Made by a program: the position numbers and the translations under genes | NCBI RefSeq assembly: GCF_000374805.1 | Contig: NZ_KB895335.1 | Coordinates: 244,046 to 308,045, forward strand | From: Chitiniphilus shinanonensis DSM 23277 | GTDB lineage: Bacteria > Pseudomonadota > Gammaproteobacteria > Burkholderiales > Chitinibacteraceae | Length of the DNA: 64,000 nucleotides | Direction: 5' to 3' | Notes under the pieces: model-generated | What the model was told of the DNA's origin: nothing | The model's database searches: none | Seen by the model: the letters and a program-made list of their open reading frames with translations, nothing else | Shown: positions 1 through 18,972 of the stretch, piece by piece | Numbering within the stretch: the stretch's first letter is position 1 | How the letters are laid out: each line of letters opens with the position of its first letter

Positions 1-632
1 ATATCCGCCTTCACCAAGATCCGGAAAGTACTTTCAAAAAGCTTGGTTCCTTCACGAAACTCCGATCGTTTATCCTCTAGCCTATTGCTCCGGGACATAA
101 GGATTACGAGTGGGGGTTTCGTCTTTCGCTCCGCAATCGCGCTAGCAAGGCCATCAATAGACACTTTGATATCGTCCGTCCGCTGCGCCGAGCAGAGGTA
201 GAGATCCATGAAGACAATGTCAGTATCGGCAACTGCAGGCACAAAATCTCGTCCCACTAAATTGCACGTCAAGCCAGAGGCTTCGAGCAACTCACGCAAA
301 ACATTTAAGTGTCCAATGTCTGCTTGCATGTCTGCTGTGTACCGCGCAAACAATGTTTGACAGAGCATTGGAGCGATTTGCTTCCTATTATCCCAAAGGC
401 AACGCACAAATCCGTCTGACTTTTGAAGCTCCTCCGCCTCCAGCTCTGAGTATCCAGGGAAAGCAACATCTAATGAATTATGGTCATCCGCGCTCAAATC
501 ATCAAAGAACTGTGTCCACTGCTGACTATCAACTGAGAGATCATCGGCAAGTGGAATTTCATCGATGGCGTCATCGACGATTAGTGCTCTAGTGATGTTC
601 GCCGCGGCGAGGATATCTGCGAGTTCAGCCAT
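1..632 (-). CDS. Partial CDS (N-terminal ~210 aa visible; C-terminus lies left of the window) encoding an atypical receiver (REC)-like domain protein. Its start ATG (632..630) overlaps the stop of the upstream kinase gene (TAATG).
   Basis: Own translation of the minus strand from 632: MAELADILAAANITRALIVDDAIDE...DIVFMDLYL...PPLVILMSRS...FRILVKADI. The DD / D / S / K succession is typical of CheY-like receivers, but an acidic insertion of ~70 aa separates the DD pair from the putative phospho-Asp. It is absent from the ORF track because it runs off the window edge. Low-GC codon usage matches the island. Confidence 0.5.
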   Translation of the reverse strand, partial: MAELADILAAANITRALIVDDAIDEIPLADDLSVDSQQWTQFFDDLSADDHNSLDVAFPGYSELEAEELQKSDGFVRCLWDNRKQIAPMLCQTLFARYTADMQADIGHLNVLRELLEASGLTCNLVGRDFVPAVADTDIVFMDLYLCSAQRTDDIKVSIDGLASAIAERKTKPPLVILMSRSNRLEDKRSEFREGTKLFESTFRILVKAD

Positions 633-2989
633 TATTTTGTCGTGTTCAATGGAAGTTCAAGTATGAAACGATTGAGGCGGCCATTGGCGTTTTCTGGACT
701 GGGATCAAGCGTCAAGGTGCCCCCCATGTAGGTCGCACACTCGCGCGCGATGAATAAGCCAAGTCCACGGCGCTTCGATTTCTCTTTCAACGAGAAGAAG
801 GATCTGAAAATGCGCTCACAGTTTTCTTGAGCAATGCCGGGGCCGTTGTCTTCGAAGAGGATGGTCGGGGGGGAGGGCAAAAGCGTAATGGAGATCGTGG
901 ACTTCTTTCCGGATTGCTTGCCAGCACCCATGTCCAGCCAATATTTAGAATTTGAGATCAGATTTTCAATTATTTGAACTACCATGCCCTTAACAGTTCG
1001 CACATTTACCGCGTCATCCGACATGGAGAGCTTCACTGAGATTTTGTGGCGCTCAAACTGAGCTTCATGGGCTTCAAGCGTGTTCAGGATGAGGTCACGC
1101 AAATCAAATGTTTCGACGCGCTGACGTCCTGAGACGCTAAGAGGATCCAACACCCGAATCCTCTTACCCACGCTTTTCATTTGAGCCCTGAGGGAGTCCA
1201 ACTTTACCTTGACTTCCGCAGGAACATTCTTGCCTCGAAGCGCCTCGAGGTTTTCGAGGGCGTTTTCAGATGCTCGTGCAAGCTCATGAGCCACGACCTC
1301 GACCATGAGGCCAACTCCAGCCATCTCTATCATCTGCCGACTTTCTTGTTCAACTTCCTCAATGCGTTGGCGAGCGCGCTCTGCGAACTCTGAAAAATCA
1401 AACAGTGTTTGTTGAAGCTCTTCAAGAGATGGGTCATCCCTTGGGGCGATTTTCCGAAGTTTTGCTAAAGCGTTTTTCGCGCGGGTGTCTAAGTTCGCGA
1501 CCTCAGTTTTAGCTTGGCTGAGGTCAACCTTCTGTGACTTATATTGCTTCTCAACGTTCTTCATCGACTTGAATAGCAAGTCCTGAATCACGTATTGCAT
1601 GATTCCCAAAAAAACTTGCTGCTCAGGGGTTTCGCGTAGGCCTTCCCGATTGGTTTGGTCAACCAAAGCGGGATTATTAACCCGTGAAATTTCAACTTTG
1701 CCTACGAACTGAGCCTTGTTGAGGGTGTATCCGGTTCGGGCTAGCGCCTTGCGATCCAAGGCAAGCCAGTCATCTTCGTCCTCACCATAGGGGAATACCC
1801 GGAATCCATCTCGATATAGCAGAATCCCAGACCAACGCTGCTGCTGTTCTCGCACCGCTCGCAGGTCGCCAATCCCATCCATAGAAGTGAGAAGACGCCG
1901 GTTATACCAATGTACCTGGAAGGTGAATGGTCCCAGTGATGCAAGAGCGCTTTCTGGTATTTCTCGCGAGGTGCCAATCACAGCCGATTCAAGGTCTTCG
2001 GCTGAAATGAGATAGTTTTCTGACTCCACCGGATGGGGAAAGCCAAGATTTTTTATCTCTATATCACATGTGAGCTGCGGCTTTCCCTCCGCGACTGTGT
2101 ATGCCCCGCTGACGGACACATGCGCACCTTGGATAAGCGCTTTTTGCATCCACGGAATACCGATGCGCTCCTCATTCCAATACAGTGCAACTCGTGGGCG
2201 TTTCTTGGGATCAATAAAGGGATCCGTCAAACGTGAGAAGTCATAGTCCGCCATTCGCTTAATACGTTCTGCAGTCCAATCTTCGGTGAGCTTTCCAATG
2301 ATGATTCGCGTCCCCGACCAACCGGTGTTCTCAATTGCATCGCCGAGTGTGGGATAAATGTCGATATCCGCCAGCATGGCATCAATTTGGGTGAAGGCAG
2401 ACCAGTCGATGTGGAGACAATTGATACGGCTGTCTGTAGCTCTGGCTGTCTCAACTCGAAGCATGTCACCAAGCCGCATAGCGGATAACCGCCCAATGCC
2501 CTTCTCTCCAAGAAACGGCGATTTTGACTCGCCAGCTCGGAGGGCTTTGTCAACCTCTCGCTTTCGAGACGCAGTGCCAATGACTAAGAAATTATTGTTC
2601 AGGTCATCAACGGACATGCCAGAGCCCGTGTCGCTAATGACAATGTGGCTCATCTCGTAAATTTTATCGAGGGCGTCCGCAAGTTCTTGGCCAGTATTTG
2701 CTTTTTGAATCAGCACCTTGGATTGGTCAAGCAGCTCAATGGACGCATCAGCATTCAACGCAGCAAGTGCGAGTGAAGTAACTACGCTGGTTGATTTTGG
2801 ATTCGCGAGCGCTTTGCGGCGCAACTCTAAGTAAGCATTGCGACGAATTACTATATTGAACCGGATGTCGACGCCATCCTTGGTCCTAGCATCAAAACCG
2901 TTCTTAATCAGTTCATAAAAAGCAATGATGTCTGAACTAATTAGTTCAGAACCTAGCTCCAAAACCGTGCGTGCCGTGATTTTGAACAC
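632..2989 (-). CDS. 785-aa dual Bergerat-fold protein: N-terminal MORC/HSP90-like GHKL ATPase fused to a C-terminal histidine-kinase core (H-box-like AHELARA plus HATPase_c).
   Basis: The N-terminus has ELIKNGFDA (N-box), DTGSGM (G1) and GEKGIGRLS (G2). The C-terminus has VAHELARASENALENL (H-box-like), IIENLISNSKYW (N-box), FEDNGPGI (G1), IFRSFFS (F) and GLGLFIAR (G2). GTG start at 2989 with AAGGAA 6 nt upstream. It lies 70 bp downstream of the PAPS-reductase gene. Confidence 0.75.
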   Translation of the reverse strand: MFKITARTVLELGSELISSDIIAFYELIKNGFDARTKDGVDIRFNIVIRRNAYLELRRKALANPKSTSVVTSLALAALNADASIELLDQSKVLIQKANTGQELADALDKIYEMSHIVISDTGSGMSVDDLNNNFLVIGTASRKREVDKALRAGESKSPFLGEKGIGRLSAMRLGDMLRVETARATDSRINCLHIDWSAFTQIDAMLADIDIYPTLGDAIENTGWSGTRIIIGKLTEDWTAERIKRMADYDFSRLTDPFIDPKKRPRVALYWNEERIGIPWMQKALIQGAHVSVSGAYTVAEGKPQLTCDIEIKNLGFPHPVESENYLISAEDLESAVIGTSREIPESALASLGPFTFQVHWYNRRLLTSMDGIGDLRAVREQQQRWSGILLYRDGFRVFPYGEDEDDWLALDRKALARTGYTLNKAQFVGKVEISRVNNPALVDQTNREGLRETPEQQVFLGIMQYVIQDLLFKSMKNVEKQYKSQKVDLSQAKTEVANLDTRAKNALAKLRKIAPRDDPSLEELQQTLFDFSEFAERARQRIEEVEQESRQMIEMAGVGLMVEVVAHELARASENALENLEALRGKNVPAEVKVKLDSLRAQMKSVGKRIRVLDPLSVSGRQRVETFDLRDLILNTLEAHEAQFERHKISVKLSMSDDAVNVRTVKGMVVQIIENLISNSKYWLDMGAGKQSGKKSTISITLLPSPPTILFEDNGPGIAQENCERIFRSFFSLKEKSKRRGLGLFIARECATYMGGTLTLDPSPENANGRLNRFILELPLNTTK

Positions 2990-3059
2990 TGTATGTTTCC
3001 TTAGTATCCCATCACCGTATCAATAATTGATCCGCCGCTGAATAAGCGCATTCCATTTC

Positions 3060-3902
3060 TCACTTATGGCAGATCAAGCAGGATCCGCCGCCTTCGTCCT
3101 CGCCGTAGACGTCATCGATGTCCTCAGGGCAGGCTTTCTCAGGCCGCAGCGGATTGATCGGGATGGCTCTACGTATGCGAGTGCGGCGAATCTCGTATTC
3201 CGCCTCGATCTCCGCCACGCGCTCCGGTTGCTCCAAGTCGCCAAGAGATTCGCCCTTAGACCACGTAAAGGGAGAGCCGTGCTCCAAAGCGTCCTTCTCC
3301 AAGGCCTTCGCCGCTTCGTAGGCCTCGGGATGCCTCTCCCTGAGGCGAACCCATTCAATCTTTTGCTGGAAGAAGCAGAACGTGCACCCGCTGCGCGAAC
3401 GCCAGTCATAATACTTGGGATAGCCGACGCCGGAGTTCTCCAAAATGTCGATCACCCCTGCCTTGTCGATCCCTGCCTCACGAAAGGGTAGCTTAACGAA
3501 CAAATTGTCTGCCTTGGCTGCATAGCCTTCTCGGTAGTCCTCATCGGCTCGAATGGCAACGTATGAGGTGACCGTGTCACCAGCTGCCAGCATAGGCCTA
3601 ACCCACTCTTCGAACGGAGCCAGCTTCAACTGCCGGGTGCACCAGCGCGAGTTAGGATTGGGTAGAAAGTGGTTGTATTGACGCAGCCAAAAGTTGAAAG
3701 TCCGCTTGGGATTCAGGCGTGCGATCGGCTTGCCAAGAAAGCCCTCAAGCTTCCCAAGGAACTCCTCAACCTCGGGAAGCTCCTCACCGGTGTCGGTAAA
3801 GAAGTAGTCGATGTCGAGCTCAGGGTGGCGGTCGCGCATGTAGACAGCCAGTGCGGCACTGTCTTTCCCGCCAGAGATACCGAGAACGTGCCGCTCAGCC
3901 AT
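3060..3902 (-). CDS. PAPS-reductase / PP-loop ATP pyrophosphatase family protein (SspD/DndC-like, 280 aa).
   Basis: PP-loop motif GISGGKDSAALA near the N-terminus and C-terminal Cys clusters (CTFCFF, CLIC). An 8-nt overlap with the upstream ATPase gene (its stop at 3895..3897) suggests translational coupling. Confidence 0.8.
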   Translation of the reverse strand: MAERHVLGISGGKDSAALAVYMRDRHPELDIDYFFTDTGEELPEVEEFLGKLEGFLGKPIARLNPKRTFNFWLRQYNHFLPNPNSRWCTRQLKLAPFEEWVRPMLAAGDTVTSYVAIRADEDYREGYAAKADNLFVKLPFREAGIDKAGVIDILENSGVGYPKYYDWRSRSGCTFCFFQQKIEWVRLRERHPEAYEAAKALEKDALEHGSPFTWSKGESLGDLEQPERVAEIEAEYEIRRTRIRRAIPINPLRPEKACPEDIDDVYGEDEGGGSCLICHK

Positions 3903-6900
3903 CTGTAGCCTCCTTATCGATAGACGCCAACTTCATCCCCGCCTTGGCCAGAATCGCTAGTAGGACTTCAGTTTTCAATCCTTGACCTTCCAGCAGCGAA
4001 GCGACCTCGTCGGCCTTGGTCTCTACTGTCTCGCGGTAGCGATCAGATATCGCGAACGAACGCGAAATAGTCTTCGTATCCGCCCCTGCGCCGATGACAA
4101 CAGCAATTGCTTCGCTATGCGCTTTACGCCCCTGCACTGCTACAAACGCTTCAGCTTCACGGAAACGCCGAGCAAACTTCACCAGCTCCAAAATCGCGGC
4201 ATCGATGTGACGGTCAACCCAATCCCTCGGGGGTTTTTCAGCTGCCAAGCTCAGAATGCCCTCAAGCGAAGCCCTGCTGCCGTCGAAGTTGGCCAAGCGT
4301 GTCGCAAATGCATCAAGGCGTAGATCACCCGAAATACCCGTGACGGACCTAGCTCTTTCACGCAGAGCCTTAAGATCATCGCGGCTCGCATCAAGCGCTT
4401 CGAACATCTTGGCCTCTACCTCGTTCAGCATCTTTCCGTAAGCACCAGCGAGCTCTTGAAGGGGGGCACGTAAGGCCTTCACGTAGGTTTTGCCATTGGC
4501 CGCATTCAGCAGCGAAGTGAGATCAACGAATAAGACCTTGTGGGGGTCGCTGGCCTTTAGAAGCAGGTCACGCATGTCCTTGGCTGTTTGCCCCAACCGA
4601 GCAGTCCTTTGAGACCATTCGGGAAGATTAAACACCATCGCCACTAGCCCACGAGCAGCTTCAAGTGGGTCTGCCGCCTCGGCCTTCTCGCCAACTTCTG
4701 TTAGGAGCTTAGAAATACCCTGAAGAATGCGGCTCTTGTCCTCATCAATGGCTACCCAGCGCAACGAGAAGCGATTTGGATCCTGAAGGCACTCGTCAAT
4801 GTCGAAGTCGGTCAACCTCGGGACGAACATACCATCCTTGTAAACGGCGACGTTGGCCTTATGAGCCAACAAAAAAGCCGCAAAGATGACAGGTTGCACA
4901 CCCAGCCTTACACCGAAAGGCGGCGCGCTCCACAGCGAGTAAATTTCGTGCGCGCCTATTCGGGTAGCGGCATCCGAAAACAGGGACCTAGTCGCTCTCC
5001 AAAGGGGTTCAAATCCTGCCGCAAAACCATCGCCAGGTGGCGTGAAACGCCATGCACCAGAGGTGTCTTTACGATGCAACCCCGTGCTATTGAGTAGGGT
5101 CTCGTAAAGCCCTCGTTCAGCGGGAAATCCCTCGAAGCCTAGTGCCTCCTGACCCTCGGCCTTAATCATCGCGTGCAGCAGCTCGCGTCGAGCCTTCACG
5201 CTGTTGCTCGACACGCCATCTCGGTTAACCAACTCGCTCCAAATTGGCGGCGAACTGCTGAACAATTCATTTGCGAGGCGTGAGGCAATGGGCGAGAGCT
5301 TTGAGCCTAGTTCAACGGCTTCATCGGTTCCGTTGTGCCACTGAGCCTGCGACACCGCAGTTTGGAGCTGATACTCCAGGCTTGCTCGCGTGGCGACCAG
5401 CCGAGCATAGACCTCACGTCGAGCGACTGCATCGCCTTGGAGCTCATGGCTATCTTTGACTTGCTCCAGCGCTACCAGCTCAGCAGAAAGCTCAGCGATG
5501 CGAGCATGATTGGCAGGAATACCAACCATCACTGGCCAGGGGCAAAGCCTGGAGCAGGCCCGAGCGCGCAATTGAGATGCCTGCTGGCTCTCTCCTTTGC
5601 CAGGCAATGCAAGGATAAACGCACCAAACTCGCCGTTCTTGGGCTGGAACTTGGCTGCGATCTTCTCCGCCTCCTCGATACTGCACAGCGAGAGTTCCAT
5701 CCAGCGCATGGTGCCAGTCTGATGGTAATGCCGTTTGGCTACCACAGGATGCAGGCTCATAAGCTGGGCTAGACGGCCATAATCGATACTCGAAGATGCA
5801 GCCATGGCTTGGGTAATAGCCGCATCAATATTGAAATCGCTGCCCTCAAATACCGACCAGGCACCGGTATAGCTCTTGTAGAGAACAACTTTCAGCGAGC
5901 GCAGTTTTTGAAGTGCAGCATCGAGCTCTTCTCTCTCTTGGTCAAGGAAGAGCGAGCCAAGCACGAAGGCATCGGCGGCCAAGCCTGATCCGTTGCGGAA
6001 CAGGTCGATGACCGCGATGTTCTTGATAAGCGCCACCAAAAGTGGGTCGCCGGCTTTGGCTTCTGCTCGCTCTACAGCCTCAACTGCTTGGGACCAGCGA
6101 TGCCCATCTGCAGAAGCGAGAATTGCCGGCTCCAGGTTCGAGCGCAGGTAGTCCCAGTAGTCATTCGGGCGGTACCAACTCGCTTCGCTCTTGAGCGTCG
6201 AATTCAGATATGAGTGGAAGCCATGAGGCTCAACCGAAGACAAGAATCCAAACGTACTGCGCTCGTTCTGCCCGAACTGTCGCTTGGAGATTGGCCCTAA
6301 CAGGGCTGCCATAGCAGGATGCAATGGCCAGCAAGCTTCCAATGCCGTGGCAAAGTTTGTCCCCACAGCAGGCCTGCGAGACCGGATTGCATCCGCGATG
6401 ATCTTGGATGCGTCTCGCATCTCAAGCGGGCGCTCGTCTGTTTCGATTGCGCGGCCAATCAGCTCAACAACTTCATCGCTTGCGGCCACGAAGGGCAAGT
6501 CGGCATAACGTCCTTGCACCTTTGCCCAATCGTCACGAGTATCGATACCCAAGCGGGCCGAATACTGTGCAAAAGATTGATGTAGCACGCCGATGACAAC
6601 AAGCCGCCCTTCAGAACGCGCTGCGGCTTCAGCCAGCTCTTGGAAGAAATAGACGTCATCCTCCGAGCCGAGGGCCGATGCCTCCAAGAATTTGCCCATC
6701 TCATCGATCAATAGCAGCACACCGTCATGTGGACGACTCTTAGCCTGTTCAAGTAAATCAGCGATGAGGCTTTGCGCGTTTGGCTCGTTAGAGCGATCGA
6801 TCGTCCTGCCCAGCGCACGACATACTGCCGCATGGAGGTCGCTGACTACGCTGCCTCGGCGGCCCACTGCCGGGACAATCAACCACCCCGCTTGGACGGG

Positions 6901-7230
6901 GAAGGCTCTGTCGAAAGTGGGCTTGGAGTCTAGGCTCAGGACTTGGCGGGCCTTCGTGCGGAGATCTTCGTCGGGATGTAATGCGCTCGCCAAGGCGACA
7001 GCGAGCGAGCTTTTACCTCCGCCAAACGGGCCGGTCCAAGTAAAGCAGCGCTGGTTAGTGCTAACAAGCTGATTGCATATCCCATCGATGACAGCAGTCG
7101 CAGTCGCGTGGCAGATGTAGCCGGATAGGGCGTCAGCTCTGCCAATGTCGGCGTCGATGCGGATGGAGCGCTGGTATTGGCGCGAAATCTGGACAACATC
7201 TGCCAGAGTCTGTTGCATCTGGTCAGTCAT
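3895..7230 (-). CDS. Large (1111 aa) P-loop NTPase, SspC-like ATPase of a phosphorothioation-type module.
   Basis: Walker A GPFGGGKSS and Walker B-like LLLIDEMGKF. ATG at 7230 overlaps the stop of the upstream DUF4007-like gene (ATGACTGA). Sits in the low-GC island. Confidence 0.8.
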   Translation of the reverse strand: MTDQMQQTLADVVQISRQYQRSIRIDADIGRADALSGYICHATATAVIDGICNQLVSTNQRCFTWTGPFGGGKSSLAVALASALHPDEDLRTKARQVLSLDSKPTFDRAFPVQAGWLIVPAVGRRGSVVSDLHAAVCRALGRTIDRSNEPNAQSLIADLLEQAKSRPHDGVLLLIDEMGKFLEASALGSEDDVYFFQELAEAAARSEGRLVVIGVLHQSFAQYSARLGIDTRDDWAKVQGRYADLPFVAASDEVVELIGRAIETDERPLEMRDASKIIADAIRSRRPAVGTNFATALEACWPLHPAMAALLGPISKRQFGQNERSTFGFLSSVEPHGFHSYLNSTLKSEASWYRPNDYWDYLRSNLEPAILASADGHRWSQAVEAVERAEAKAGDPLLVALIKNIAVIDLFRNGSGLAADAFVLGSLFLDQEREELDAALQKLRSLKVVLYKSYTGAWSVFEGSDFNIDAAITQAMAASSSIDYGRLAQLMSLHPVVAKRHYHQTGTMRWMELSLCSIEEAEKIAAKFQPKNGEFGAFILALPGKGESQQASQLRARACSRLCPWPVMVGIPANHARIAELSAELVALEQVKDSHELQGDAVARREVYARLVATRASLEYQLQTAVSQAQWHNGTDEAVELGSKLSPIASRLANELFSSSPPIWSELVNRDGVSSNSVKARRELLHAMIKAEGQEALGFEGFPAERGLYETLLNSTGLHRKDTSGAWRFTPPGDGFAAGFEPLWRATRSLFSDAATRIGAHEIYSLWSAPPFGVRLGVQPVIFAAFLLAHKANVAVYKDGMFVPRLTDFDIDECLQDPNRFSLRWVAIDEDKSRILQGISKLLTEVGEKAEAADPLEAARGLVAMVFNLPEWSQRTARLGQTAKDMRDLLLKASDPHKVLFVDLTSLLNAANGKTYVKALRAPLQELAGAYGKMLNEVEAKMFEALDASRDDLKALRERARSVTGISGDLRLDAFATRLANFDGSRASLEGILSLAAEKPPRDWVDRHIDAAILELVKFARRFREAEAFVAVQGRKAHSEAIAVVIGAGADTKTISRSFAISDRYRETVETKADEVASLLEGQGLKTEVLLAILAKAGMKLASIDKEATDG

Positions 7231-8176
7231 ATGCCCGCCTGATCATGTTCTTAATGTCTTCCTTGGACAGTTCTTTGCGATGGACTTGGCGAAGACCAGC
7301 GGAATCAGTCCATTCAAGTTTCTGGCCAGTGAAATCCGAAAGCGCAATCAACTTTTGGGCAATCGACTCCTCATCGAGTTTGAATACGCGCCCCGGCGAT
7401 CCTTCTTCGTAGGCAATCGTCTCAAATGCCAATGAACTTTGCCCTGATGCAATACGGTCCCAAAAGTCAACAAGTGCATAAGCAAAAACGCCTACGTGCA
7501 GCGATGACTTTGGGCCTCGACGGAAAGCGTAGTGCCCCTTGTACACTTCTTGGAGTAAACCAAGTTCTCCTAACAGAGGTTCGGCGAAATCTTCCGGCGT
7601 TCCTCCAGCCGCACGCGGCGCATAACTTCGAACGCACGTCTCCAAATCCCTGGAAATCGTCACTTTCGACAAACGGTGTTTGGGGTCAAGATCCCGGGCA
7701 TAGTCATTCAAAGACTCTTCCAAGTCTGCACGGGAGAAAGTGGGAGCCGATACGTGATTGAACAACCAAAACCACGTGGTAGACCGTATACATCGCCCTG
7801 CTAGCTGCCAATGCACGAGCCATGCGGTCGCGGGGTTTTCTGCGTAAGGATCCAATCCGTCATCACGCAATATCTCAGCAGCAAGCTCGTTTACTTGGAA
7901 CCCTTCCGAGTCGATCTCATCAAGGATTCCGCACGCCAAAGCCCAATGTTTCATGGACGCGACCATGTTTTTGCCAACGCCAAACTTGGCAATGGCATCG
8001 GCGTCAGCAAAGGCAGTTTTGAGGATTTTCCCGTTGGGGTCAGCGCGATTAAAGACCTTTTTCAGCCACATCTGACGAAGTGGGAAAGTCTCATGTCCTG
8101 AGAAGTGGGCAGGAACCCCGGAGCGTGCTTGGGTAGTCATAGCAGCATTATAAGGCGGCCAACTGGTGATGGTCAC
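7223..8176 (-). CDS. DUF4007-like protein (SspB-like putative nickase), about 305-317 aa.
   Basis: N-terminal FSGHETFPLRQMW motif, as I recall for DUF4007/SspB proteins. It is the first gene of the operon and the GC drop begins just upstream. The ORF starts with GTG at 8176; an alternative ATG is at 8140. Confidence 0.65.
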   Translation of the reverse strand: MTITSWPPYNAAMTTQARSGVPAHFSGHETFPLRQMWLKKVFNRADPNGKILKTAFADADAIAKFGVGKNMVASMKHWALACGILDEIDSEGFQVNELAAEILRDDGLDPYAENPATAWLVHWQLAGRCIRSTTWFWLFNHVSAPTFSRADLEESLNDYARDLDPKHRLSKVTISRDLETCVRSYAPRAAGGTPEDFAEPLLGELGLLQEVYKGHYAFRRGPKSSLHVGVFAYALVDFWDRIASGQSSLAFETIAYEEGSPGRVFKLDEESIAQKLIALSDFTGQKLEWTDSAGLRQVHRKELSKEDIKNMIRRAYD

Positions 8177-8472
8177 CAGTTGGCCGCCGCGTGTAAAACT
8201 ACGCTCCTTTCCTGCTTAGCCTGCAAGCGAAAAGAACAAGCAACCTTATGATTTTTTGCAAAAAATTCTCTTTCATCCTTGGTGTCGTTGATCTACTGCT
8301 CAAGCGCGAGCAAGCCAAAACCCCACCAGAATGTCATCACGTGCACTCTCGCTCTGCTCAACGATCTAGCGCTCGGAACGGAAGTTTTATGATGGAAGAA
8401 TAAAGAGGATGAGGTGAGCCTTGATACGCTCGCCGGCAATGCCCGCATCCAACCCATCCTGCAACGGGAAGC

Positions 8473-9309
8473 TCAATGCTTCGGCGCCTTGCCGTGCTGC
8501 CTGAGCAATGCGGCGGCCTCCCGCCGGTCGGCCTGTTCGGCCAGCATCAGCGCGGTCTTGCCGCGCTGGTTCTTGAGGCTTGGATCTGCGCCATCAGCCA
8601 ACAGCAGCTCGATCAGCGCAACGTCGCCCCGCAGTGCGGCGAGCATCAATGCGGTGGTGCCCTGCCGGCGGACCCGTGCATTCACCGGCGTTTTCATGGC
8701 CAGCAGTCGTTTCGCCAACGACTGCTTCGCCGGGCAGGTCGTGCCATCCGGGCATGAGGCCATTGCCAGCAGATGCAACGCGGTCATGCCACCATCCGTC
8801 ATGGCAACCGCGCTGGCGCCCAGATCGAGCAGGACATGCGCGTTGTCCCACCGGCTCGCGGCGATGGCGCTCATCAACGGCGTGCCACCGTCGCTGTCCC
8901 TGGGTTCGTCAGGGCGCGCGCCACGATCCAGCAGGTAGCGAACTTGGGCGGGCGTGCTGATGACCGTGGCGTAGCCAAGCCAACTCATGTCGATGAGACA
9001 GGCGTTCGGGCTGGCGCCCGCCTGCAGCATGCGGGCGATCCCTGCCGTGCCCGCGCTGGGCGCCAAGGCGTTGAGGAAGTGCACGGCGTATTCATCACCC
9101 GGCAGTGGCGGGATCGGCTTGTTCGTCGCTTGCGCACGCGCGGCTTGCTCGCTCCAGTTCAACAACTCGGTCACGTCGACCTCGGATGCGGGGCAGCGAT
9201 CGACCGCGGAAGATGGCGCGGCACCCGCGACCGTTGCTTGAAGCAGGATGCCGATGACCAGCGCCTGCGATACCGCCCGGCACACGGACCCGGAAACCCT
9301 CATCGCCAA
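8473..9309 (-). CDS. Secreted ankyrin-repeat protein (signal peptide plus at least 4 ANK repeats).
   Basis: N-terminal hydrophobic h-region ending AGAAP. Repeats of the form G.TPLM.A...LLL.GA; GTTALMLAALRGDVALIELLLADGADP. Confidence 0.75.
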   Translation of the reverse strand: MAMRVSGSVCRAVSQALVIGILLQATVAGAAPSSAVDRCPASEVDVTELLNWSEQAARAQATNKPIPPLPGDEYAVHFLNALAPSAGTAGIARMLQAGASPNACLIDMSWLGYATVISTPAQVRYLLDRGARPDEPRDSDGGTPLMSAIAASRWDNAHVLLDLGASAVAMTDGGMTALHLLAMASCPDGTTCPAKQSLAKRLLAMKTPVNARVRRQGTTALMLAALRGDVALIELLLADGADPSLKNQRGKTALMLAEQADRREAAALLRQHGKAPKH

Positions 9310-9371
9310 CTGAAAGCCCCTTTATCGGTTCCCGGTTGGCACGGCGGTGCGGCGACACCCGAATTTGCCGA

Positions 9372-10121
9372 TCACCGCTTGCCCAGCAACTGCGCGATGC
9401 TTTGGTTTCCCGCCGCGATGGCGAGATCGCGCGCAGTCTGGCCGCTGCTGTTTTTCTGCGAGACATCCGCACCACGGGCGAGCAGCACCTCGACCAGTTG
9501 TTGGTTGCCCAGCTCCGCAGCAATCATCAATGCGGTATCGCGGGTTCCGAATGCCGTCGCATTCACACGGTAGCCCCCATGCCGGATCAAGTAATCGGCG
9601 AACACGGCGGCGCCACGGAAGTCGTCATTGAGCGCGACCAGCGGCAGCAAAGTGGGGTTTTGAGCCGCATCGGGCAGACGGGCGCCGGCCTTGAGCAACT
9701 GGCAGGCAATGCCGAACTGGCCAGCGGCCAGCGCCCCCTGGAAAGGGGTTTGCCCGCTCCAGCCCGGCGCATCAACTTTGGCCCCGGCCTTGAGCAGCTC
9801 CTGAGCAGCCGGCCAGTTGCCTACCACCGCCGCCATCTCCAGCCACGTGTAACCCAAGGCACCTTGCTTTTGATCCAGCGCGCGCCGATTTTGCTGAAGC
9901 AGCATTCTCAACCGGGAGGTCGGTTCCCCGGCCACGATGGCATAACGAACCGCATCAGTGCGCGAACCCAACTTGAGCGGTGGCGAGTAGGGCTTGATTT
10001 CCACCCGCTCGCAAAAGGGCCGCAGCACAGGGGGCAACTCGCCCGCAGCGGAAATAGCCGGGCCACAAAGCTGCAAGGCAACAAAACAGAGCAGCGTCTT
10101 GAATGACGACATGGAGTCCAT
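9372..10121 (-). CDS. Secreted ankyrin-repeat protein, paralog of the preceding gene.
   Basis: Signal-peptide-like N-terminus (TLLCFVALQLCGPAISAAG). ANK repeats such as DTALMIAAELGNQQLVEVLLARGADV. Confidence 0.75.
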   Translation of the reverse strand: MDSMSSFKTLLCFVALQLCGPAISAAGELPPVLRPFCERVEIKPYSPPLKLGSRTDAVRYAIVAGEPTSRLRMLLQQNRRALDQKQGALGYTWLEMAAVVGNWPAAQELLKAGAKVDAPGWSGQTPFQGALAAGQFGIACQLLKAGARLPDAAQNPTLLPLVALNDDFRGAAVFADYLIRHGGYRVNATAFGTRDTALMIAAELGNQQLVEVLLARGADVSQKNSSGQTARDLAIAAGNQSIAQLLGKR

Positions 10122-10136
10122 TCCACAAAATCGAGG

Positions 10137-11036
10137 CTATTGCTGACCGGCGTTCTGCATGGCGCTCTGTAGCAACGCATTGGCCTCATCGTAACGGTGC
10201 TGCGTCATCAGCTGGATAAATGTCTTGGACTCGTACACATCAAAAATGCCCTTGTCCTCAAGCCGCTTGGCAATCTGCATCGCCCGCAGCGCGCTGATTC
10301 CACTGGCCTTTTCCGTATCCAGCAACCCAATCCCCAAGTCAACCAGCGGCCCCAAACCCCGCGTGACCACGCTGCCCTTGGCCGCCCGCAACGCAGCCTC
10401 GGCGGATTTCAGCTGAGAGGCCGCCTTGGCGCCCGCCGTCGCCTGGCGCGCGTCCTCGGCCTTCAGGTACTGGCCCAGCCGCGAGGTCGAATAGGTGGCC
10501 TCCTTGGTCGGCAAGGTGCCGGCCTTGCTGCCCAGCACGTCGGCGAACGGGCCCCAGCGGTCGCGCTTCATCGCGTCCTTCACCGAGGTTTCCAGCCATT
10601 TTTCCAGCGTGCCGGAGAACTTGCCGGTGAACAGCCCGGCTAAACCACCGGCCGCCGCTTCGAGGTTCTTCGAGCCGGCCTTCATGCCTATCATGCTTTC
10701 GCTGAGCAGGCGGAACTGCGGGTAGCGTTGCAGCAGCAGCCAGGTTTGCGGGTCCTGCCGCTTCAGTTCCGCCATCACCGCCGCCATATGCGTGGGACGG
10801 TTGCGCCGCAGGTATTCCAGGTAGTTCAGGTAGTCGTTCAGCTTGGGGATGCGCTTTTTCGCTTCGCCGATCAGCGTCTGCGCCTGCTGGTAGTCGGCCC
10901 GGGCATCCCGGTCCATGCCACGGCCGGGCTGCACGCTTTCCACCTTGCGGCCGCGCGGGTCGAGCGGCGGGCGATCCGAGTATTCGACGTTGCCGTAGGC
11001 ATCGGTGATTTTATAAAGCGAAGCCATTGCACTCAT
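10137..11036 (-). CDS. DUF4124-like domain protein with a long alpha-helical/charged C-terminal region (299 aa, no signal peptide).
   Basis: N-terminal YKITDAYGNVEYSDRPP matches the DUF4124 signature (Y..D..G...YSD.PP). The overlapping ORFs in other frames are R/G/A/P-rich artefacts. Confidence 0.6.
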   Translation of the reverse strand: MSAMASLYKITDAYGNVEYSDRPPLDPRGRKVESVQPGRGMDRDARADYQQAQTLIGEAKKRIPKLNDYLNYLEYLRRNRPTHMAAVMAELKRQDPQTWLLLQRYPQFRLLSESMIGMKAGSKNLEAAAGGLAGLFTGKFSGTLEKWLETSVKDAMKRDRWGPFADVLGSKAGTLPTKEATYSTSRLGQYLKAEDARQATAGAKAASQLKSAEAALRAAKGSVVTRGLGPLVDLGIGLLDTEKASGISALRAMQIAKRLEDKGIFDVYESKTFIQLMTQHRYDEANALLQSAMQNAGQQ

Positions 11037-11106
11037 CCCGTCAATTCGACAACGCCGACATCACGGCGGCGGCGGCGTCCCGGCTTATCCGCAAGGGCGA
11101 ATCGCC

Positions 11107-11526
11107 CTAGGCGCCCCAATTGGCCTGCCTGAGCGACTTCAGTATCGCCACGGCGGGATCGCTCGCGCTGCCCGCCCCCATCGGCGGCGACATTCCGCCC
11201 AGGTCGGCGCCGGGTTCGAGCACGCGGCGGTGGATCAGCTGGCCGCGCTCGAAGCACAGCAGTTCGGGCAGGTCTTCGGGCAGGTAGTCGCCGATGAATT
11301 CGGCATGCTCTTCCAGATCCAGCCACAGCCAGAGGTGCAGCGGATGGCTTTGCTGTTCGGTCGCCGCCGTGGCAAGCAGGGCCGGGTAGAGGGTGCGGCA
11401 TTTCTCGCACCACGCCTGCGCGCCCAACACCACGCAGGCGCGGGTGTCGGCCTGGTTCAGGCGGTCCGCGATGCGGCGGGCATCGGTCCATGGGTCCAGC
11501 AAGGCGATGTCGGACGAGGGGGTCAT
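11107..11526 (-). CDS. Small thioredoxin-fold-like protein with a CxxC motif (139 aa). It is the last gene of the vgrG operon.
   Basis: Real start MTPSSDIALL sits inside ORF 11107..12405, whose N-terminal 290 aa are Arg/Ala-rich junk. CEKC motif. ATGA overlap with the upstream gene at 11523..11526. Confidence 0.55.
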   Translation of the reverse strand: MTPSSDIALLDPWTDARRIADRLNQADTRACVVLGAQAWCEKCRTLYPALLATAATEQQSHPLHLWLWLDLEEHAEFIGDYLPEDLPELLCFERGQLIHRRVLEPGADLGGMSPPMGAGSASDPAVAILKSLRQANWGA

Positions 11527-13049
11527 CGATGCTCCGATACAGGCTGCGGCGCGGCGTGGGTGTCGGCGAACACGGGGCCCTTGACGCGCGTGGCGGCGAC
11601 CGGGGCCAGCAGCATCAGCCCGTGGGCGGCGACGGCGCGCACCGCGTGGGGATGATCGCCGTCGACCACGTTGCGCAGCCATTCCCGGCTGGCGGGGCGG
11701 CCGAGCAGGTGCCGTTCGGTGTTGGCGACATTCGGCACCGGATACGCGACGATCCGCGCCACGTCCGGCTGGGGCAGGCCGTTGTCCGCGTCGCGCTGCG
11801 CGTCCTGGAGCGCGAACGGATCGCCCGGAGCGCCGGCCGCCGGAGCGCCGGCCGCCGGATCGCCCGCCGCCACATCGTCCGCGATGGTCTCCACGACCGC
11901 CTCGTCCGACTCGATCACCAGGCCGTGCGCTTCCAGGTCGATGCCGGTCAAGGTCTGCCAGACCCAGCCGGCGTGGCGAGCCAGCAATGGGTCCTGCATC
12001 CAGGCGACGATGCGCGGCAACTGCGCCAGATCGCCGTGATGCAGCAGGAAGGTCAGCGCCAGGCGCGGCGGCAGCTCGCGCAGGATCGCCGCGGCGTCGG
12101 GGCTGCCCGGCGGCGTCAGCCACGCCAGGCAGGCCAGCCAGCGCAGCAGCCGGCGCAGCACCCACTGCCGCGTCGCGCCGCTGCTTCGTTGCAGTTCGGC
12201 CAGTTGGGGCGGCAACACCTCGCGCAGGATGCGCCGGGCATCGAGCAGGTTGGCGTGGGCAGGGGCGCGCGCATACAGGCGCGCCAGCCCGAGCGCGGCC
12301 TCGGCGCGCACCGGCGCCTCGCTGTCTTCCAGCAACCGCCGCAGCAAGGCCGGCGGCGAGTGGTCGACCGTCGGCTGCAAACCATCCACCCATTTGGATT
12401 CCCACGCGGCGACAAGCTCGCTCAGCGGGCCGGTGGCCTGTTCATGGGGCAGCGCGTCGCCCCAGGCGCGAATCGCCATCGCGGCCAGCGCGCGGCAGGC
12501 CGCGGCGCGCACCCACGGCGACGGCTGCGCGCCGGGATCGTCGAGCAACGGGGCCAGGCCGGGGAACGGGTCGAAGCCGCCCGGCGTGGCGCCGATCAAC
12601 GCGGCGGCGCGCAAGGCGGCCACCTGCCCGATCTCGCCGCGTTGCGCCAGATACGCCAGCGCTTCGGGCCGGGCCGCTGCCGGCAGCCAGGCCACGGCGC
12701 TGATCAGGCCGCGCATCAGCGATTCCGGGGCGGCGGATACCCGGCCCAGCAGCGCTTCGATGGCCGCTGGGTCGCGGTGGCGCCACTGCAAACCCAGCCA
12801 GGCGGCGACGAAGGCTTCGCCCGGCTGGCCCCAGCGTTCCAGCGCCTTCAGCGCGGGCGCGACGCCGTGCTCCTCGGCGACCAGCAGCCCTTCCAGATGC
12901 GCATCGAGCAGGCGGTTGAAGTGCGCGTGCCGCTCCGGGTAGAGGTTGAACGCCCGCGCCGCGCCGTCCAGTTGCGCCCAGTAGAACGCGGCATCCTCGG
13001 CGTGGCGGATCAGCAGCGGTTCGATATGGGCGGAGATCGCGGCCTGCAT
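11523..13049 (-). CDS. HEAT/ARM-like repeat protein of the T6SS-associated TIGR02270 family (PA0101-like).
   Basis: Position downstream of the effector/immunity pair, as in the P. aeruginosa vgrG1b island. Leucine/alanine-rich helical repeat composition. Confidence 0.6.
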   Translation of the reverse strand: MQAAISAHIEPLLIRHAEDAAFYWAQLDGAARAFNLYPERHAHFNRLLDAHLEGLLVAEEHGVAPALKALERWGQPGEAFVAAWLGLQWRHRDPAAIEALLGRVSAAPESLMRGLISAVAWLPAAARPEALAYLAQRGEIGQVAALRAAALIGATPGGFDPFPGLAPLLDDPGAQPSPWVRAAACRALAAMAIRAWGDALPHEQATGPLSELVAAWESKWVDGLQPTVDHSPPALLRRLLEDSEAPVRAEAALGLARLYARAPAHANLLDARRILREVLPPQLAELQRSSGATRQWVLRRLLRWLACLAWLTPPGSPDAAAILRELPPRLALTFLLHHGDLAQLPRIVAWMQDPLLARHAGWVWQTLTGIDLEAHGLVIESDEAVVETIADDVAAGDPAAGAPAAGAPGDPFALQDAQRDADNGLPQPDVARIVAYPVPNVANTERHLLGRPASREWLRNVVDGDHPHAVRAVAAHGLMLLAPVAATRVKGPVFADTHAAPQPVSEHR

Positions 13050-13092
13050 CAGCGGCCGCCCGCATCGTGGCGCGACGGAAGCATCGGCCGGC

Positions 13093-14442
13093 TCATGTCA
13101 GCGACACGTTCATCGCCTGCGCGATGGCGCGCGCGGTCATGCCGGTCTCGGGGTCGGCGGCGTCCGGGTTCGCGCCCAGTTCGATCAATCGCCGCGCCAC
13201 CGCGTCGTAGCCGTCCCACGCGCCCTGGGCGCTGATCGCGTTGACCAGCAGCAGCCAGCTGTGCGCTTGCAGCGCGGCCAGATCCAGCGCTTCGGGCTGG
13301 CCCAGCGCCGCCAGGGCGGCGTCGGGACCATCGTTGCCGATCACGTCCAGCAGCGCCTGCATACCGTCGTGGTCGGTCAGCCGATCCTGGCCGCGCCCCA
13401 ATTGCTGCCGCGCCGCGGCACGCGGCGATTGCTCGGCGAAGGCGAACGCGGAGAACAGCAACGTCCAGGTCTTGCCGTCGTAGATCGCCGCGCCGTGGGG
13501 GCTGGCGGTCAGCATCACCTTGCCGTCGGGGCTGACGTCGATCACCCCGCTGGCGTTGCGGATCGCCGCCGGCTGGTCGGGCGGCTCGATCAGCTTGCCG
13601 TCCTGCAACACCCACAAGCCGTGGTCCGAGCCGCACCACAGCCGGCCGGCGAACCACGCGGTGTCCTTGAACTGCAGGCTGAAGTGGCCTTCCAGCAAGC
13701 GCTTCCAGCGATCGTCGCGCCCCACCCACAGCGAACCGCCGTTGCCACTGATGTAGACGTTGCCATCGCCGGCGCAGCACACGGTGTAGAGCAATTCGTT
13801 GGACGGAAAATCGATCTGCCGCCACGCCTTGCCGTCGAAGTGCCAGACATCGCCGGCGCCGCCGACGGCGTAGAGGTCGTCCTCGGCAAACCCGGCGATA
13901 TCCTCGAAGCCGGTTTCCAGCACGCCTTTACCTTCCTTGGCCAGCCGCTCGGGGACGGGCGGCGACACGGGGAACGGTCGCCAGTCGTCGGCACCGGCCC
14001 GGATGCGCAACTGCCGCGCCGTGCCGGCCACCGTCAACCGTCCGGCGATCCGGGTCACCTTGGTCGGCGACCACCAGTATTCGGAATCGGGAATCTGGGG
14101 CGGGATGTCCTGCTCCACATTCGCCGTGGGCGCGTCATACCAGAAAACATGCCTGCCCATGTCCACCGCGACGAACTCCGACTTGCCATTCGCCTCGGCA
14201 TACGCCACCCGGGTGAAGTCGAAATAATCCGCCTCCTGGAAATAGAAACGCCGCTCCATCGGGCGCTCCATCCGTGCAAACAGAAAGCGCGTACGCGGCA
14301 ACGGATCGCGATGCGGGGAATCGGTGGCTTCGACCAGGATGAAGCAGTAGCGCGTGTTGTCGTAGCCGACCGCGCAGTCATAAACGGTAAAGCCTTTGAA
14401 AAAACGCTCGTACCGCTCTTTGTCGCAAATCATTTCCATCAC
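13093..14442 (-). CDS. Putative cognate immunity protein for the Tox-GHH2 effector (Tsi7-like position), with a C-terminal ankyrin-like segment.
   Basis: Starts 19 bp downstream of the effector stop. No signal peptide, so cytoplasmic. C-terminal GMTARAIAQA/ELGANPDA ANK-like repeats. Confidence 0.55.
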   Translation of the reverse strand: MMEMICDKERYERFFKGFTVYDCAVGYDNTRYCFILVEATDSPHRDPLPRTRFLFARMERPMERRFYFQEADYFDFTRVAYAEANGKSEFVAVDMGRHVFWYDAPTANVEQDIPPQIPDSEYWWSPTKVTRIAGRLTVAGTARQLRIRAGADDWRPFPVSPPVPERLAKEGKGVLETGFEDIAGFAEDDLYAVGGAGDVWHFDGKAWRQIDFPSNELLYTVCCAGDGNVYISGNGGSLWVGRDDRWKRLLEGHFSLQFKDTAWFAGRLWCGSDHGLWVLQDGKLIEPPDQPAAIRNASGVIDVSPDGKVMLTASPHGAAIYDGKTWTLLFSAFAFAEQSPRAAARQQLGRGQDRLTDHDGMQALLDVIGNDGPDAALAALGQPEALDLAALQAHSWLLLVNAISAQGAWDGYDAVARRLIELGANPDAADPETGMTARAIAQAMNVSLT

Positions 14443-14461
14443 GTTGTCCTTGAACCCGCTC

Positions 14462-16087
14462 TTAGGCGTCGCCGCCGCTCGTCAATACGCTACCGCCGCC
14501 CGCCATCCCCGAATGCGGACGCACCTTGGCTTTGTCCAGCCCGCCGCACTTGTGCGCATCCTTGTAGTACTCGTCCAGCTGCGCCTTGATGCATTTTTTG
14601 TCGCAGCCAAAGGTCAGGCTCACCATATTGGCCATTTCGTCGCGCGCCGTTTCGTAGTCCATGGTCGGCTTGGCCATGTGCATTCCCATCACCTTCTTGG
14701 TCGCGGCATGCGCCGCGCCGTGCGTACCGTGGCTGTTGGTGGTGCCTTCCAGGCAGATGGTGGGCGCGCCGGCTTCGGAGTATCCCTCCCAGCACTTGTC
14801 CTTGGGCAGCTTGTCGCGCGGCATGTCGCTGAGCTTGAGCGCCGATTTGTCCTTCTTGCCGGTGTAGCTGTTCTTCCAGCTGTCGAACGCCTGCTGTTTC
14901 GCCGCCGGGTCGGCGTCGCGGAACATCGAGTCGGGCAGCAGGTGGTGCCCGGTCTGCCCCGGGCAGCAGCCCTGCCCCGCCCAGTTGGCGGTGTTGGTGC
15001 CGGACTTGCTGTAGGGCACCAGCGTGCACTTGCGCGCGCGCAGGCAGGGGTCGGCCGCGGCCAGCGCGGCCTGCACGTCGCTCATCAGCGCCTGGGCCTG
15101 GTCGCTGTTGATGTCGGTGAGCTTCTTGATGTCGTACTTCTTGAAGGCGTCCTGCACCTTGCCGGCGGCATCCTTCAGCCGCTGCACCGTGTCCTTGATC
15201 TCGGCGACCTGGGTCTTGAATTCATCGTACATCTGGTAGGCCTGGACGCCGGTATACACCGCGTCGGCCACGGCGATCACCTGGCCGATGATGGGAATCC
15301 AGCCGGTCAGGCCGCGGCGCGCGGCGAAGGCGGCGGCCTTCTTGGCGGCGAACTCGGCGGCCTCTTTCTCCAGCTTCTCGATGACCTTCTGCTTGGCGAT
15401 GTCCTCGATCTGGCCCCACGCCTTGGCCGGGAAATCATCGACGTCGTCCACCCAATCCTGGAACTCCTTGACGCTGGAAGGCTTGATGAACAGCCCATCG
15501 CAGTGGTTCAACACCCACGAGCCGGAGTTCTTGTCGGATTTGGTGGCCGGCAGGGTCTTGCTCTTCTTGCGTTTCTTGCGCTTTTCCTCGTCGTCCGCGC
15601 ACTTCTTTTCCAGCTTCTCCTTGTCTTCCTTGCACGCTTTCTTGGTGGAGGCGTCGTCCATGTAATACGTGGGCGGCGTGTTGCTGGGCTGCGAGCCGTG
15701 GTTGTGGGTGGTCAGGTCGGTGTGGCGCGCCACGCCCAGCCCTTCGAAAATCACATCCAGCGACCACTTGGTGAAATACGCCTTGCCCTTGATCACCCGC
15801 GTCTTCACGCCTTTCTGGAACGCCTGGGTGGCCGCCTCGTTGCCGGTGCTGGTGGCGAAGTAGGAGCGATCCTCGATCGCCACTTCCTTCCTGGCGATCA
15901 GCACACTGGTGGTGCCCTTGGTGATGTCCTTGGCGTAGGCGGTGTTGGGATAGGGAATCACGATCGGACCGGCGCTGGGCGCGGGCGGGCTCCAGCACGG
16001 ATCGGGAAAGGCGGCGATCGATTTGCCGTCGGTCTTGGCCGCCTTGCAAGCGATTTCCAGATCGTTGGCATAGACGTTGGTCTTCAT
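14462..16087 (-). CDS. T6SS effector: PAAR-like DUF4150 N-terminal domain, highly charged linker and C-terminal Tox-GHH2 (HNH/EndoVII-fold) nuclease domain (Tse7-like).
   Basis: MKTNVYANDLEIACKAAKTDGKSIAAFPDPCWSPPAPSAGPIVIPYPNTAYAKD is a classic DUF4150. C-terminal GQTGHHLLPDSMF...NSHGTHGAAH carries the GHH signature. Real start (16087) lies inside ORF 14462..16201 and forms an ATGA overlap with the upstream gene. Confidence 0.8.
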   Translation of the reverse strand: MKTNVYANDLEIACKAAKTDGKSIAAFPDPCWSPPAPSAGPIVIPYPNTAYAKDITKGTTSVLIARKEVAIEDRSYFATSTGNEAATQAFQKGVKTRVIKGKAYFTKWSLDVIFEGLGVARHTDLTTHNHGSQPSNTPPTYYMDDASTKKACKEDKEKLEKKCADDEEKRKKRKKSKTLPATKSDKNSGSWVLNHCDGLFIKPSSVKEFQDWVDDVDDFPAKAWGQIEDIAKQKVIEKLEKEAAEFAAKKAAAFAARRGLTGWIPIIGQVIAVADAVYTGVQAYQMYDEFKTQVAEIKDTVQRLKDAAGKVQDAFKKYDIKKLTDINSDQAQALMSDVQAALAAADPCLRARKCTLVPYSKSGTNTANWAGQGCCPGQTGHHLLPDSMFRDADPAAKQQAFDSWKNSYTGKKDKSALKLSDMPRDKLPKDKCWEGYSEAGAPTICLEGTTNSHGTHGAAHAATKKVMGMHMAKPTMDYETARDEMANMVSLTFGCDKKCIKAQLDEYYKDAHKCGGLDKAKVRPHSGMAGGGSVLTSGGDA

Positions 16088-18329: not shown

Positions 18330-18425
18330 GACGATCCCCCGAACCAGAGTAGTCCTGCCCGGTGGGACGGCAACGGCGATCCGGCAAGAAAGTGGAGGCT
18401 GGAAAAACGCACGGCCGGCGATTGC

Positions 18426-18971: not shown

Positions 18972-18972
18972 C

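Follow-up and report, generated by a model that had tools for sequence, protein, structure and literature searches.

A histidine kinase-receiver protein pair linked to Ssp phosphorothioation genes as a candidate partner module

Two restriction partners have been described for the phosphorothioate (PT)-based Ssp systems, SspFGH (PMC8092258) and the DUF262/DUF1524 nickase SspE (Xiong et al. 2020, as cited in PMC8092258). About 84% of 2,678 surveyed sspBCD clusters are without SspE and SspFGH, and the survey's authors raised the question of further, unknown restriction partners (PMC8092258). Detocs is presented in PMC11249213 as a defensive two-component system, and the GHKL domains of MORC/paraMORC ATPases and GHKL-Shedu are proposed to act as DNA clamps or as gates for an effector, either fused or a separate partner (PMC2292703, PMC12137116). 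Here we describe an operon in a 64-kb window of Chitiniphilus shinanonensis DSM 23277 DNA (contig NZ_KB895335.1, positions 244,046 to 308,045; "the window" always means this whole stretch of 64,000 nucleotides), in which genes for SspB, SspC and SspD are joined to a pair of genes encoding a 785-amino-acid (aa) histidine kinase with a second, N-terminal GHKL ATPase domain and a 682-aa partner with a receiver domain. The pair is tightly, specifically and persistently linked to Ssp loci, and it is probably a new arm of PT-based phage defense.

Literature searches combining PT or Ssp with histidine kinase, HATPase, MORC or two-component systems found no description of a kinase-receiver module, and the Dnd and BREX comparative surveys of the Aravind/Krishnan type do not cover it. 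A term search of PMC2292703 found nothing that bears on the fusion of a GHKL domain to a histidine kinase. The only mention found is one sentence, without protein analysis, in a 2025 paper on Acinetobacter baumannii (PMC12421847); the kinase-receiver variant of Ssp has been noticed once in passing and never analyzed.

The Ssp core and the kinase-receiver pair

In the list of open reading frames (ORFs) of the window, the five-gene operon occupies 1-8176 on the minus strand (Table 1), and all five ORFs are present where the initial annotation, a reading of the window's sequence, had placed them. The three tight junctions that it described are also real: sspB overlaps sspC by 8 nt at 7223-7230, sspC overlaps sspD by 8 nt at 3895-3902, and the TAATG at 630-634 is the stop of the kinase gene overlapping the ATG of the receiver-protein gene (632-630). 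The gap between sspD and the kinase gene is 70 nt. The low-GC island reported there is borne out by guanine-cytosine (GC) contents of 0.47-0.58 over 1-8500 versus 0.62-0.75 beyond; within the island, the kinase and receiver-protein genes have a GC of 0.50 versus 0.52-0.58 for sspBCD. The operon was acquired horizontally.

The identities that the initial annotation had given to the first three genes agree, far beyond chance, with the profile searches, none of which pointed to an unrelated family. SspB, the DNA-binding subunit of the phosphorothioation module, matches Pfam DUF4007 over the full profile (E = 1.9e-87) and the PADLOC SspB model (E = 1.6e-116). SspC scores 1476.9 bits against the PADLOC SspC model over residues 9-1047, with BrxC as a weaker relative (E = 2.7e-103), and is a BrxC/PglY-like P-loop ATPase whose translation contains the Walker A motif GPFGGGKS. 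SspD, a PAPS-reductase/PP-loop enzyme, matches its PADLOC model over the full length (E = 5e-137) and Pfam PAPS_reduct (E = 2e-05), and has the PP-loop motif SGGKDS as well as C-terminal Cys clusters. Judged by their sequences, the three genes encode true SspB, SspC and SspD. The SspB ORF opens at a GTG, but homologues align only from residue 14-24 on, so that translation may in fact begin at codon 13, an ATG.

Searching the 64-kb window by tblastn (E ≤ 1e-3) found no homologue of SspA (the Aminotran_5 desulfurase), SspE, SspG or SspH, and a partial SspF query had no match. Scans of the five operon proteins with PADLOC returned no SspE, SspF, SspG, SspH, DndF, DndG or DndH model. The initial annotation had stated that the window lacks SspA, SspE, SspFGH and DndFGH; this stands for SspA, SspE, SspG and SspH, is consistent with the partial SspF query, and for DndFGH extends to the five operon proteins, the Dnd genes not having been searched window-wide. 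Since IscS from elsewhere in the genome can replace SspA (PMC8092258), the absence of SspA beside sspBCD is normal and does not disqualify the locus. With the defining genes of the SspE and SspFGH types tested for and absent, the locus is an Ssp variant outside both types. The possibility that the pair is SspFGH or SspE in disguise was rejected, as no such PADLOC model was found for the kinase or the receiver protein.

The fusion of a GHKL ATPase to a histidine kinase that had been proposed for the fourth gene is supported by the catalytic motifs of both ATPase domains. Pfam assigns HATPase_c_3 to residues 113-200 (E = 6e-14) and HATPase_c to residues 670-782 (E = 1.2e-17). In an alignment of 27 homologues from beta-, alpha- and gammaproteobacteria and from metagenome-assembled genomes (MAGs) labelled Bifidobacteriaceae, Verrucomicrobiota and Bryobacteraceae, the invariant positions comprise E26/N30/D33, D120-G-G124 and G161-EKGIG-166 in the N-terminal GHKL domain, and the H-box AH568ELAR, N676/N680, D714-G-G718, F728/F731 and G742-G744 in the histidine-kinase core. 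Matches of the family profile in the PDB are to the N-domains of Hsp90, TRAP1 and Grp94 for the N-terminal part (~5e-08) and to solved histidine kinases for the C-terminal part (LvrB, 3e-15). The GHKL ATPase is followed by a middle domain, a coiled coil and the histidine-kinase core; the middle region (~200 residues, ~250-460) is extremely conserved and found no family match. Between phyla the kinase remains 61-62% identical at loci where SspC falls to 27-28%. No transmembrane segment is predicted. From these motifs and predictions, the kinase is a soluble protein combining an intact Hsp90/MORC-like GHKL ATPase with a complete histidine-kinase core.

The fifth gene, which is cut by the left edge of the window, could be completed as the initial annotation had suggested: an identical locus of the same species (L001, GCA_030160775.1) supplies the full 682 aa. 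The gene had been called receiver-like. A receiver fold with invariant phospho-acceptor residues is indeed indicated, although the product is not a small receiver and has a large MazF/CcdB-like output region. In its predicted layout, a receiver domain carrying a helical insert of ~90 aa is followed by a helical region, a domain of MazF/CcdB fold and, at the C-terminus, an alpha/beta domain. In the full-length predicted model, D20, D21, D143, S180 and K208 are found at the ends of strands b1, b3, b4 and b5, and these five residues are invariant in 124/124 family members examined. The model gives the partner a receiver fold with an acidic pocket, a phospho-Asp, a Ser/Thr and a Lys, D143 being the predicted phospho-acceptor. 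The 210 residues encoded in the window returned nothing in Pfam, NCBIfam or PADLOC scans, the full 682-aa protein nothing in PADLOC or, even at E ≤ 10, in Pfam, and three homologues are likewise without a Pfam family. With these hidden Markov model scans empty, the receiver domain is visible only through its conserved residues and structure. No helix-turn-helix or other DNA-binding output was detected by Pfam in the 682-aa protein or the three homologues.

To obtain a model of the output region, residues 212-660 were predicted alone, with a mean predicted local distance difference test (pLDDT) score of 66 and ~80 in the beta-rich part. With this model as query, Foldseek independently fills ranks 1-4 and 6-9 with structures of MazF (E = 0.03-0.25, template-modelling score up to 0.62 on target length, probability up to 0.99); in all, two structure searches liken the predicted output fold to that of the MazF/CcdB/Kid toxins. 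The alignments run over ~155 columns versus targets of ~105 residues, which fits a variable insert after the first strand; we place this ~35-aa insert at residues 361-395. G355-D356, C406-D407, G421, W455 and R503 are kept in at least 122 of the 124 family members. The profile of the full family found only noise in the PDB, and the MazF-like assignment is therefore one of fold. A separate observation concerns P0360, a protein of 1049 aa in which an AAA/BrxC-like N-terminal region (weak DUF6079 and AAA_16 matches) is joined to receiver-protein residues 235-523; whether genuine fusion or chimera of assembly, either is possible.

Linkage to Ssp loci, exchange and proposed role

A pattern scan with one genome per species, annotated by tblastn, yielded 23 loci, which represent at least five phyla. 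In 19/23, SspBCD is no more than 10 kb away from the pair; the remaining four are L025 and L026 (gene fragments), L028 (contig end) and L011 (SspG and SspH present, view ends). The kinase gene is directly upstream of the receiver gene in 19/19 loci with both genes complete. At least three gene orders or orientations occur, namely SspBCD-kinase-receiver, kinase-receiver-(SspA)-SspBCD, and divergent or convergent arrangements. Among 72,556 plasmids, 80 (0.11%) carry an SspB homologue and 6 carry the receiver protein, and all 6 are among the 80, an overlap with a probability of ~1e-15 to 1e-18 by chance according to our own arithmetic; the pair is thus present on at least 7.5% of plasmid-borne Ssp loci (≥6/80). 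On pSWIT01 of Rhizorhabdus wittichii, where the partner is 25% identical, the order is kinase-partner-XRE-SspA-SspB-SspC-SspD. At 50% identity the receiver-protein family falls into 943 clusters. Its members come from Proteobacteria and from MAGs labelled Acidobacteriota, Actinomycetota and Verrucomicrobiota; a Chloroflexota plasmid adds a partial match of 26% identity. Synteny of the pair with Ssp modules in other genomes, on which the initial annotation had staked its proposal, is therefore found at these species-level loci, on all six plasmids and down to the distant homologue on pSWIT01.

In the Bryobacteraceae MAG locus (L011:10-7396 and 12192-14905), the pair is flanked by divergent SspG/SspH (34-37% identity) and by methyltransferase-domain proteins. 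As no SspBCD is in view, this locus either has a different modification partner or is seen in a view that ends too early.

Public databases annotate the two proteins as "sensor histidine kinase" and "hypothetical protein" or "response receiver domain" protein, as would befit an ordinary housekeeping two-component system that stands beside Ssp by chance. However, conserved synteny across phyla excludes chance, the pair lies inside the low-GC island in a shared operon with SspBCD and with overlapping or closely spaced genes, the kinase lacks a membrane or periplasmic sensor domain, and the partner has no DNA-binding output. Such an origin is barely credible and is effectively refuted.

Sequence identities compared over 17 loci separate the five proteins into two sets. 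Kinase and receiver-protein identities are correlated with r = 0.97, and those of SspB, SspC and SspD among themselves with r = 0.93-0.97, whereas the kinase/receiver set versus SspB/SspC/SspD gives only r = 0.34-0.47. The Rhodocyclaceae locus, for example, has a kinase 90% identical and an SspC 61% identical, and the Acidovorax locus a kinase of 63% and an SspC of 81%. The GC content of the kinase and partner genes is usually 3-10 points under that of SspBCD, an offset shared by most of the 23 related loci. This GC offset and the incongruent identities point to two co-evolving cassettes of separate origin that have repeatedly recombined. The same is reported of SspE and SspFGH, which work with heterologous SspBCD (PMC8092258).

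The same GC offset and incongruent phylogeny, by which the pair moves as its own cassette, could mark an autonomous, Detocs-like abortive-infection system that shares islands with Ssp, responds to a phage cue unrelated to PT and would find SspBCD dispensable. Other defense genes (STAND NTPases, a helicase/GHKL/PLD trio, toxin-antitoxin genes) are found near the pair, as this explanation would have it. On the other side, co-location is near-obligate in both the plasmid and the genome sets, in spite of the rarity of SspB on plasmids, and the linkage persists to 25-31% identity, while ordinary defense-island neighbors are less faithful. We consider an autonomous system quite improbable.

The initial annotation held that the pair is present instead of a known restriction partner. 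This is borne out at the present locus and at a small number of others; pSWIT01, A. baumannii global clone 2 and the Bifidobacteriaceae, Methylobacter and Erythrobacter MAG loci likewise show no known effector beside the pair. Most loci, however, hold SspFGH, SspE or the helicase/GHKL/PLD trio too. SspFGH is co-resident at 13 distinct loci (L003 and L009 counted once), which include L003, L005-L008, L022, L024 and L029. SspE, recognized by Pfam as GmrSD_N plus GmrSD_C, is beside the pair in L017 and L020, with an equivalent 775-aa ORF in L016, and the trio, composed of a PbeA-like helicase, an MzaB-like GHKL protein and a DrmC-like PLD protein, occurs at two distinct pair loci.

The presence of a known effector (SspFGH or SspE) at most loci suits a regulatory module, one that would adjust the activity or amount of the PT machinery, or of SspFGH or SspE where they are co-resident, to DNA damage, replication state or redox/sulfur status, preventing self-toxicity or setting the partial PT level that is usual in such systems, with the C-terminal region as a protein- or nucleic-acid-binding adaptor. 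Such control would be useful, given that SspFGH acting without restraint reportedly poisons cells that lack PT (PMC8092258). The pair shares an operon with SspBCD here, it is directly upstream of SspFGH on the same strand in Agrobacterium, and the catalytic residues of a known nuclease are not mappable, all of which would also agree with regulation. However, the output has no recognizable DNA-binding or transcription-factor domain and its sole fold match is to toxins. The pair is also kept at loci without SspE and SspFGH, so that it cannot be a regulator of those alone, and the module swaps between divergent SspBCD sets (r as given above), contrary to specific protein-protein control. We regard a regulatory role as unlikely.

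An effector role is favored because the output is not a DNA-binding one, its only likeness is to toxins, the pair is retained where no other effector is present, and it is exchanged in the manner of SspE and SspFGH. That the pair is an Ssp-linked phosphorelay which switches on a toxin-like effector, a function inferred from these features, appears to us about evenly poised between right and wrong. Several observations weigh against it. The MazF/CcdB likeness is at the level of fold, with weak Foldseek E-values, and the confidence of the MazF-like region is moderate in both the truncated model (mean pLDDT 66) and the full-length model (~50-82). Searched against the PDB at E ≤ 10, a profile of residues 346-506 retrieved neither a MazF nor a CcdB chain, Pfam gives no MazF/PemK match, and none of the MazF catalytic residues is mappable onto the output domain. 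There is no antitoxin-like gene, nor any small gene beside the 682-aa gene in L001; control of the output would presumably come from the fused receiver domain. In addition, the effector-rich loci described above leave room for a regulatory pair, and independent recombination of the kinase-receiver module relative to SspBCD fits a generic signal and, equally, a looser functional link.

In the proposed mechanism, the operon would be a mobile Ssp-type phosphorothioation module co-transcribed with a dedicated two-protein phosphorelay. SspBCD would write PT marks on host DNA with a desulfurase encoded elsewhere (IscS or SspA). The GHKL domain may act as a nucleotide-driven clamp that reads the status of DNA (unmodified or invading) or the state of the Ssp machinery, and would thereby control autophosphorylation on His568. 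The phosphoryl group could then pass from His568 to Asp143 of the 682-aa response regulator, and its phosphorylation would free the C-terminal output with the MazF/CcdB-fold, toxin-like domain, which might arrest the infected cell or damage invader nucleic acid. The pair would be a third Ssp partner module beside SspE and SspFGH, working alone, as here, or stacked with others. That the phosphorelay reads the DNA-backbone mark (or Ssp sabotage) and that the MazF/CcdB-fold regulator then kills or arrests the cell is a tentative proposal, possible and on balance rather doubtful.

Island surroundings and neighboring genes

The complete locus L001 also gives the order of genes left of the window. 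The fifth gene is followed by a hairpin (L001:13652-13678) and then by the convergent gyrB-dnaN-dnaA genes, and the island, immediately downstream of these, adjoins a replication-origin gene cluster (region L001:13568-18548). Scans for promoters and terminators gave no excess over chance, the strong hairpin between the fifth gene and gyrB being the sole notable feature. No tRNA gene, and hence no tRNA integration site, was found by a tRNA scan of the window, and no integrase is among the genes called beside the island in L001. On the right, the GC shift marks the island boundary, where the promoter region is presumed to lie (Table 1).

Table 1. Features of the Ssp operon and its right flank in the 64-kb window
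Feature	Coordinates	Strand	Description
sspB	7223..8176	minus	317-aa ORF; Pfam DUF4007 and PADLOC SspB
sspC	3895..7230	minus	1111 aa; PADLOC SspC
sspD	3060..3902	minus	280 aa; PADLOC SspD and Pfam PAPS_reduct
dual-GHKL histidine kinase	632..2989	minus	785 aa; HATPase_c_3 and HATPase_c
receiver-protein gene	1..632	minus	first 210 codons of 682; remainder left of window
low-GC intergenic region upstream of sspB	8177..8472	none	GC shift at ~8500; right island boundary and presumed promoter region

Beyond this boundary, a type VI secretion cargo cluster extends over 8473-21222 on the minus strand. Two ankyrin-repeat proteins, which may serve for immunity, are encoded at 8473-9309 and 9372-10121. 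The cluster further includes a DUF4124 protein, a PAAR-like protein bearing a Tox-GHH2 HNH nuclease toxin (14462-16201) and a VgrG (18973-21222).

At related loci, the trio of a DEAD/ResIII PbeA-like helicase (548 aa), a HATPase_c_3 MzaB-like protein (583 aa) and a PLD-type DrmC-like protein (291 aa) neighbors SspBCD at L004:5476-9856, L010:3116-7493 and L027:18499-21822, and it could be another PT-linked restriction module. A STAND NTPase of ~990 aa with TPR repeats (AAA_16/NB-ARC) follows the pair at L004:14527-17484 and L017:12092-15082, which are unrelated alphaproteobacterial loci. The gene after the pair in the Bifidobacteriaceae MAG (L012:12070-14511) encodes a protein of 813 aa, whose HATPase_c_3 match is weak (E = 4.6e-05) and stays slightly below the Pfam gathering cut-off. 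BLASTP of the GHKL/middle region of the kinase against this protein and the 583-aa MzaB-like protein of L004 gave no significant similarity, and paralogy of the kinase with these two GHKL proteins from Ssp neighborhoods was rejected on that ground.

Comparison with known systems

The A. baumannii global clone 2 orphan Ssp locus (PMC12421847) has the same composition, with SspB-SspC-SspD beside a 779-aa kinase and a 637-aa partner. In strain VB1190 the kinase is 31% identical to the 785-aa kinase over the full length (E = 8e-102), and the partner keeps the DD/D/T-S/K receiver residues and an xPCDL motif. Unlike the C. shinanonensis locus, its pair is convergent to sspBCD in a separate operon, and its proteins are very divergent, the partner having only a weak match to the family profile (hhalign E = 4e-4, probability 35%). 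This locus (L031, CP040048.1 541050-569913) adjoins genes annotated as an endonuclease, two transposases and an excisionase, which suggests that it is transposon cargo, possibly of a Tn7-like element. CP040048.1 is labelled as a 658-kb "plasmid" and may be a mis-assigned piece of chromosome.

Compared to the MazF, Kid, CcdB and ToxN toxins, the output domain shares the SH3-like barrel fold of MazF, Kid and CcdB in the predicted model, with no similarity at the sequence level. It differs from these toxins in being embedded in a 682-aa protein, in its ~35-aa insert and in having no antitoxin gene, and the C406-D407 motif has no established counterpart among them. If functional, it would represent a new output class of response regulators, a toxin-fold domain.

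The N-terminal part of the kinase is comparable to the MORC/paraMORC GHKL ATPases of restriction-modification systems (PMC2292703) and to GHKL-Shedu (PMC12137116), which share an N-terminal HATPase_c_3-type domain, intact motifs and a defense context. In contrast to these, the GHKL domain here is fused to a full histidine-kinase core, and its nearest relatives in sequence are Hsp90-family N-domains.

The initial annotation had likened the pair to Detocs. The logic is alike, a cytoplasmic histidine kinase with a receiver protein that has a toxic or effector output and is not a transcription factor. Detocs, which Rousset et al. are said to have described in 2023, reportedly consists of three genes, including a receiver-only buffer protein (DtcB), and usually has a PNP ATP-nucleosidase effector. 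The present module has two genes and no buffer, there being no stand-alone receiver gene between SspD and gyrB, and no PNP domain; it has an extra N-terminal GHKL ATPase on the kinase and is tied to a DNA-modification system. A classical Detocs system was rejected on this gene and domain content.

The closest comparison remains that with SspABCD-SspE and SspABCD-SspFGH, which by the PADLOC models have the same SspB, SspC and SspD core. Like SspE and SspFGH, the pair is an accessory module beside sspBCD that is exchanged between SspBCD lineages and can co-occur with other accessories. Present at no fewer than 6 of 80 plasmid Ssp loci, it is about as frequent as SspE and SspFGH, for which 7.3-7.4% is reported (PMC8092258). 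In place of the DUF262/DUF1524 nickase SspE, or of SspF, SspG and the FtsK-like SspH, a histidine kinase and a receiver protein are found here, and control would be by phosphorylation. The pair is a concrete and widespread candidate for the unknown Ssp restriction partner that the survey authors asked about, and the "nuclease-less" Ssp system characteristic of A. baumannii global clone 2 has a divergent version of it. Modification-dependent immunity would, if the pair is functional, gain a form of signaling based on phosphorylation, and a phosphorelay that does read the DNA mark would be the first example of two-component signaling coupled to an epigenetic mark on DNA. The pair would then be the missing effector for part of the sspBCD loci without SspE and SspFGH, including those of A. 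baumannii global clone 2.

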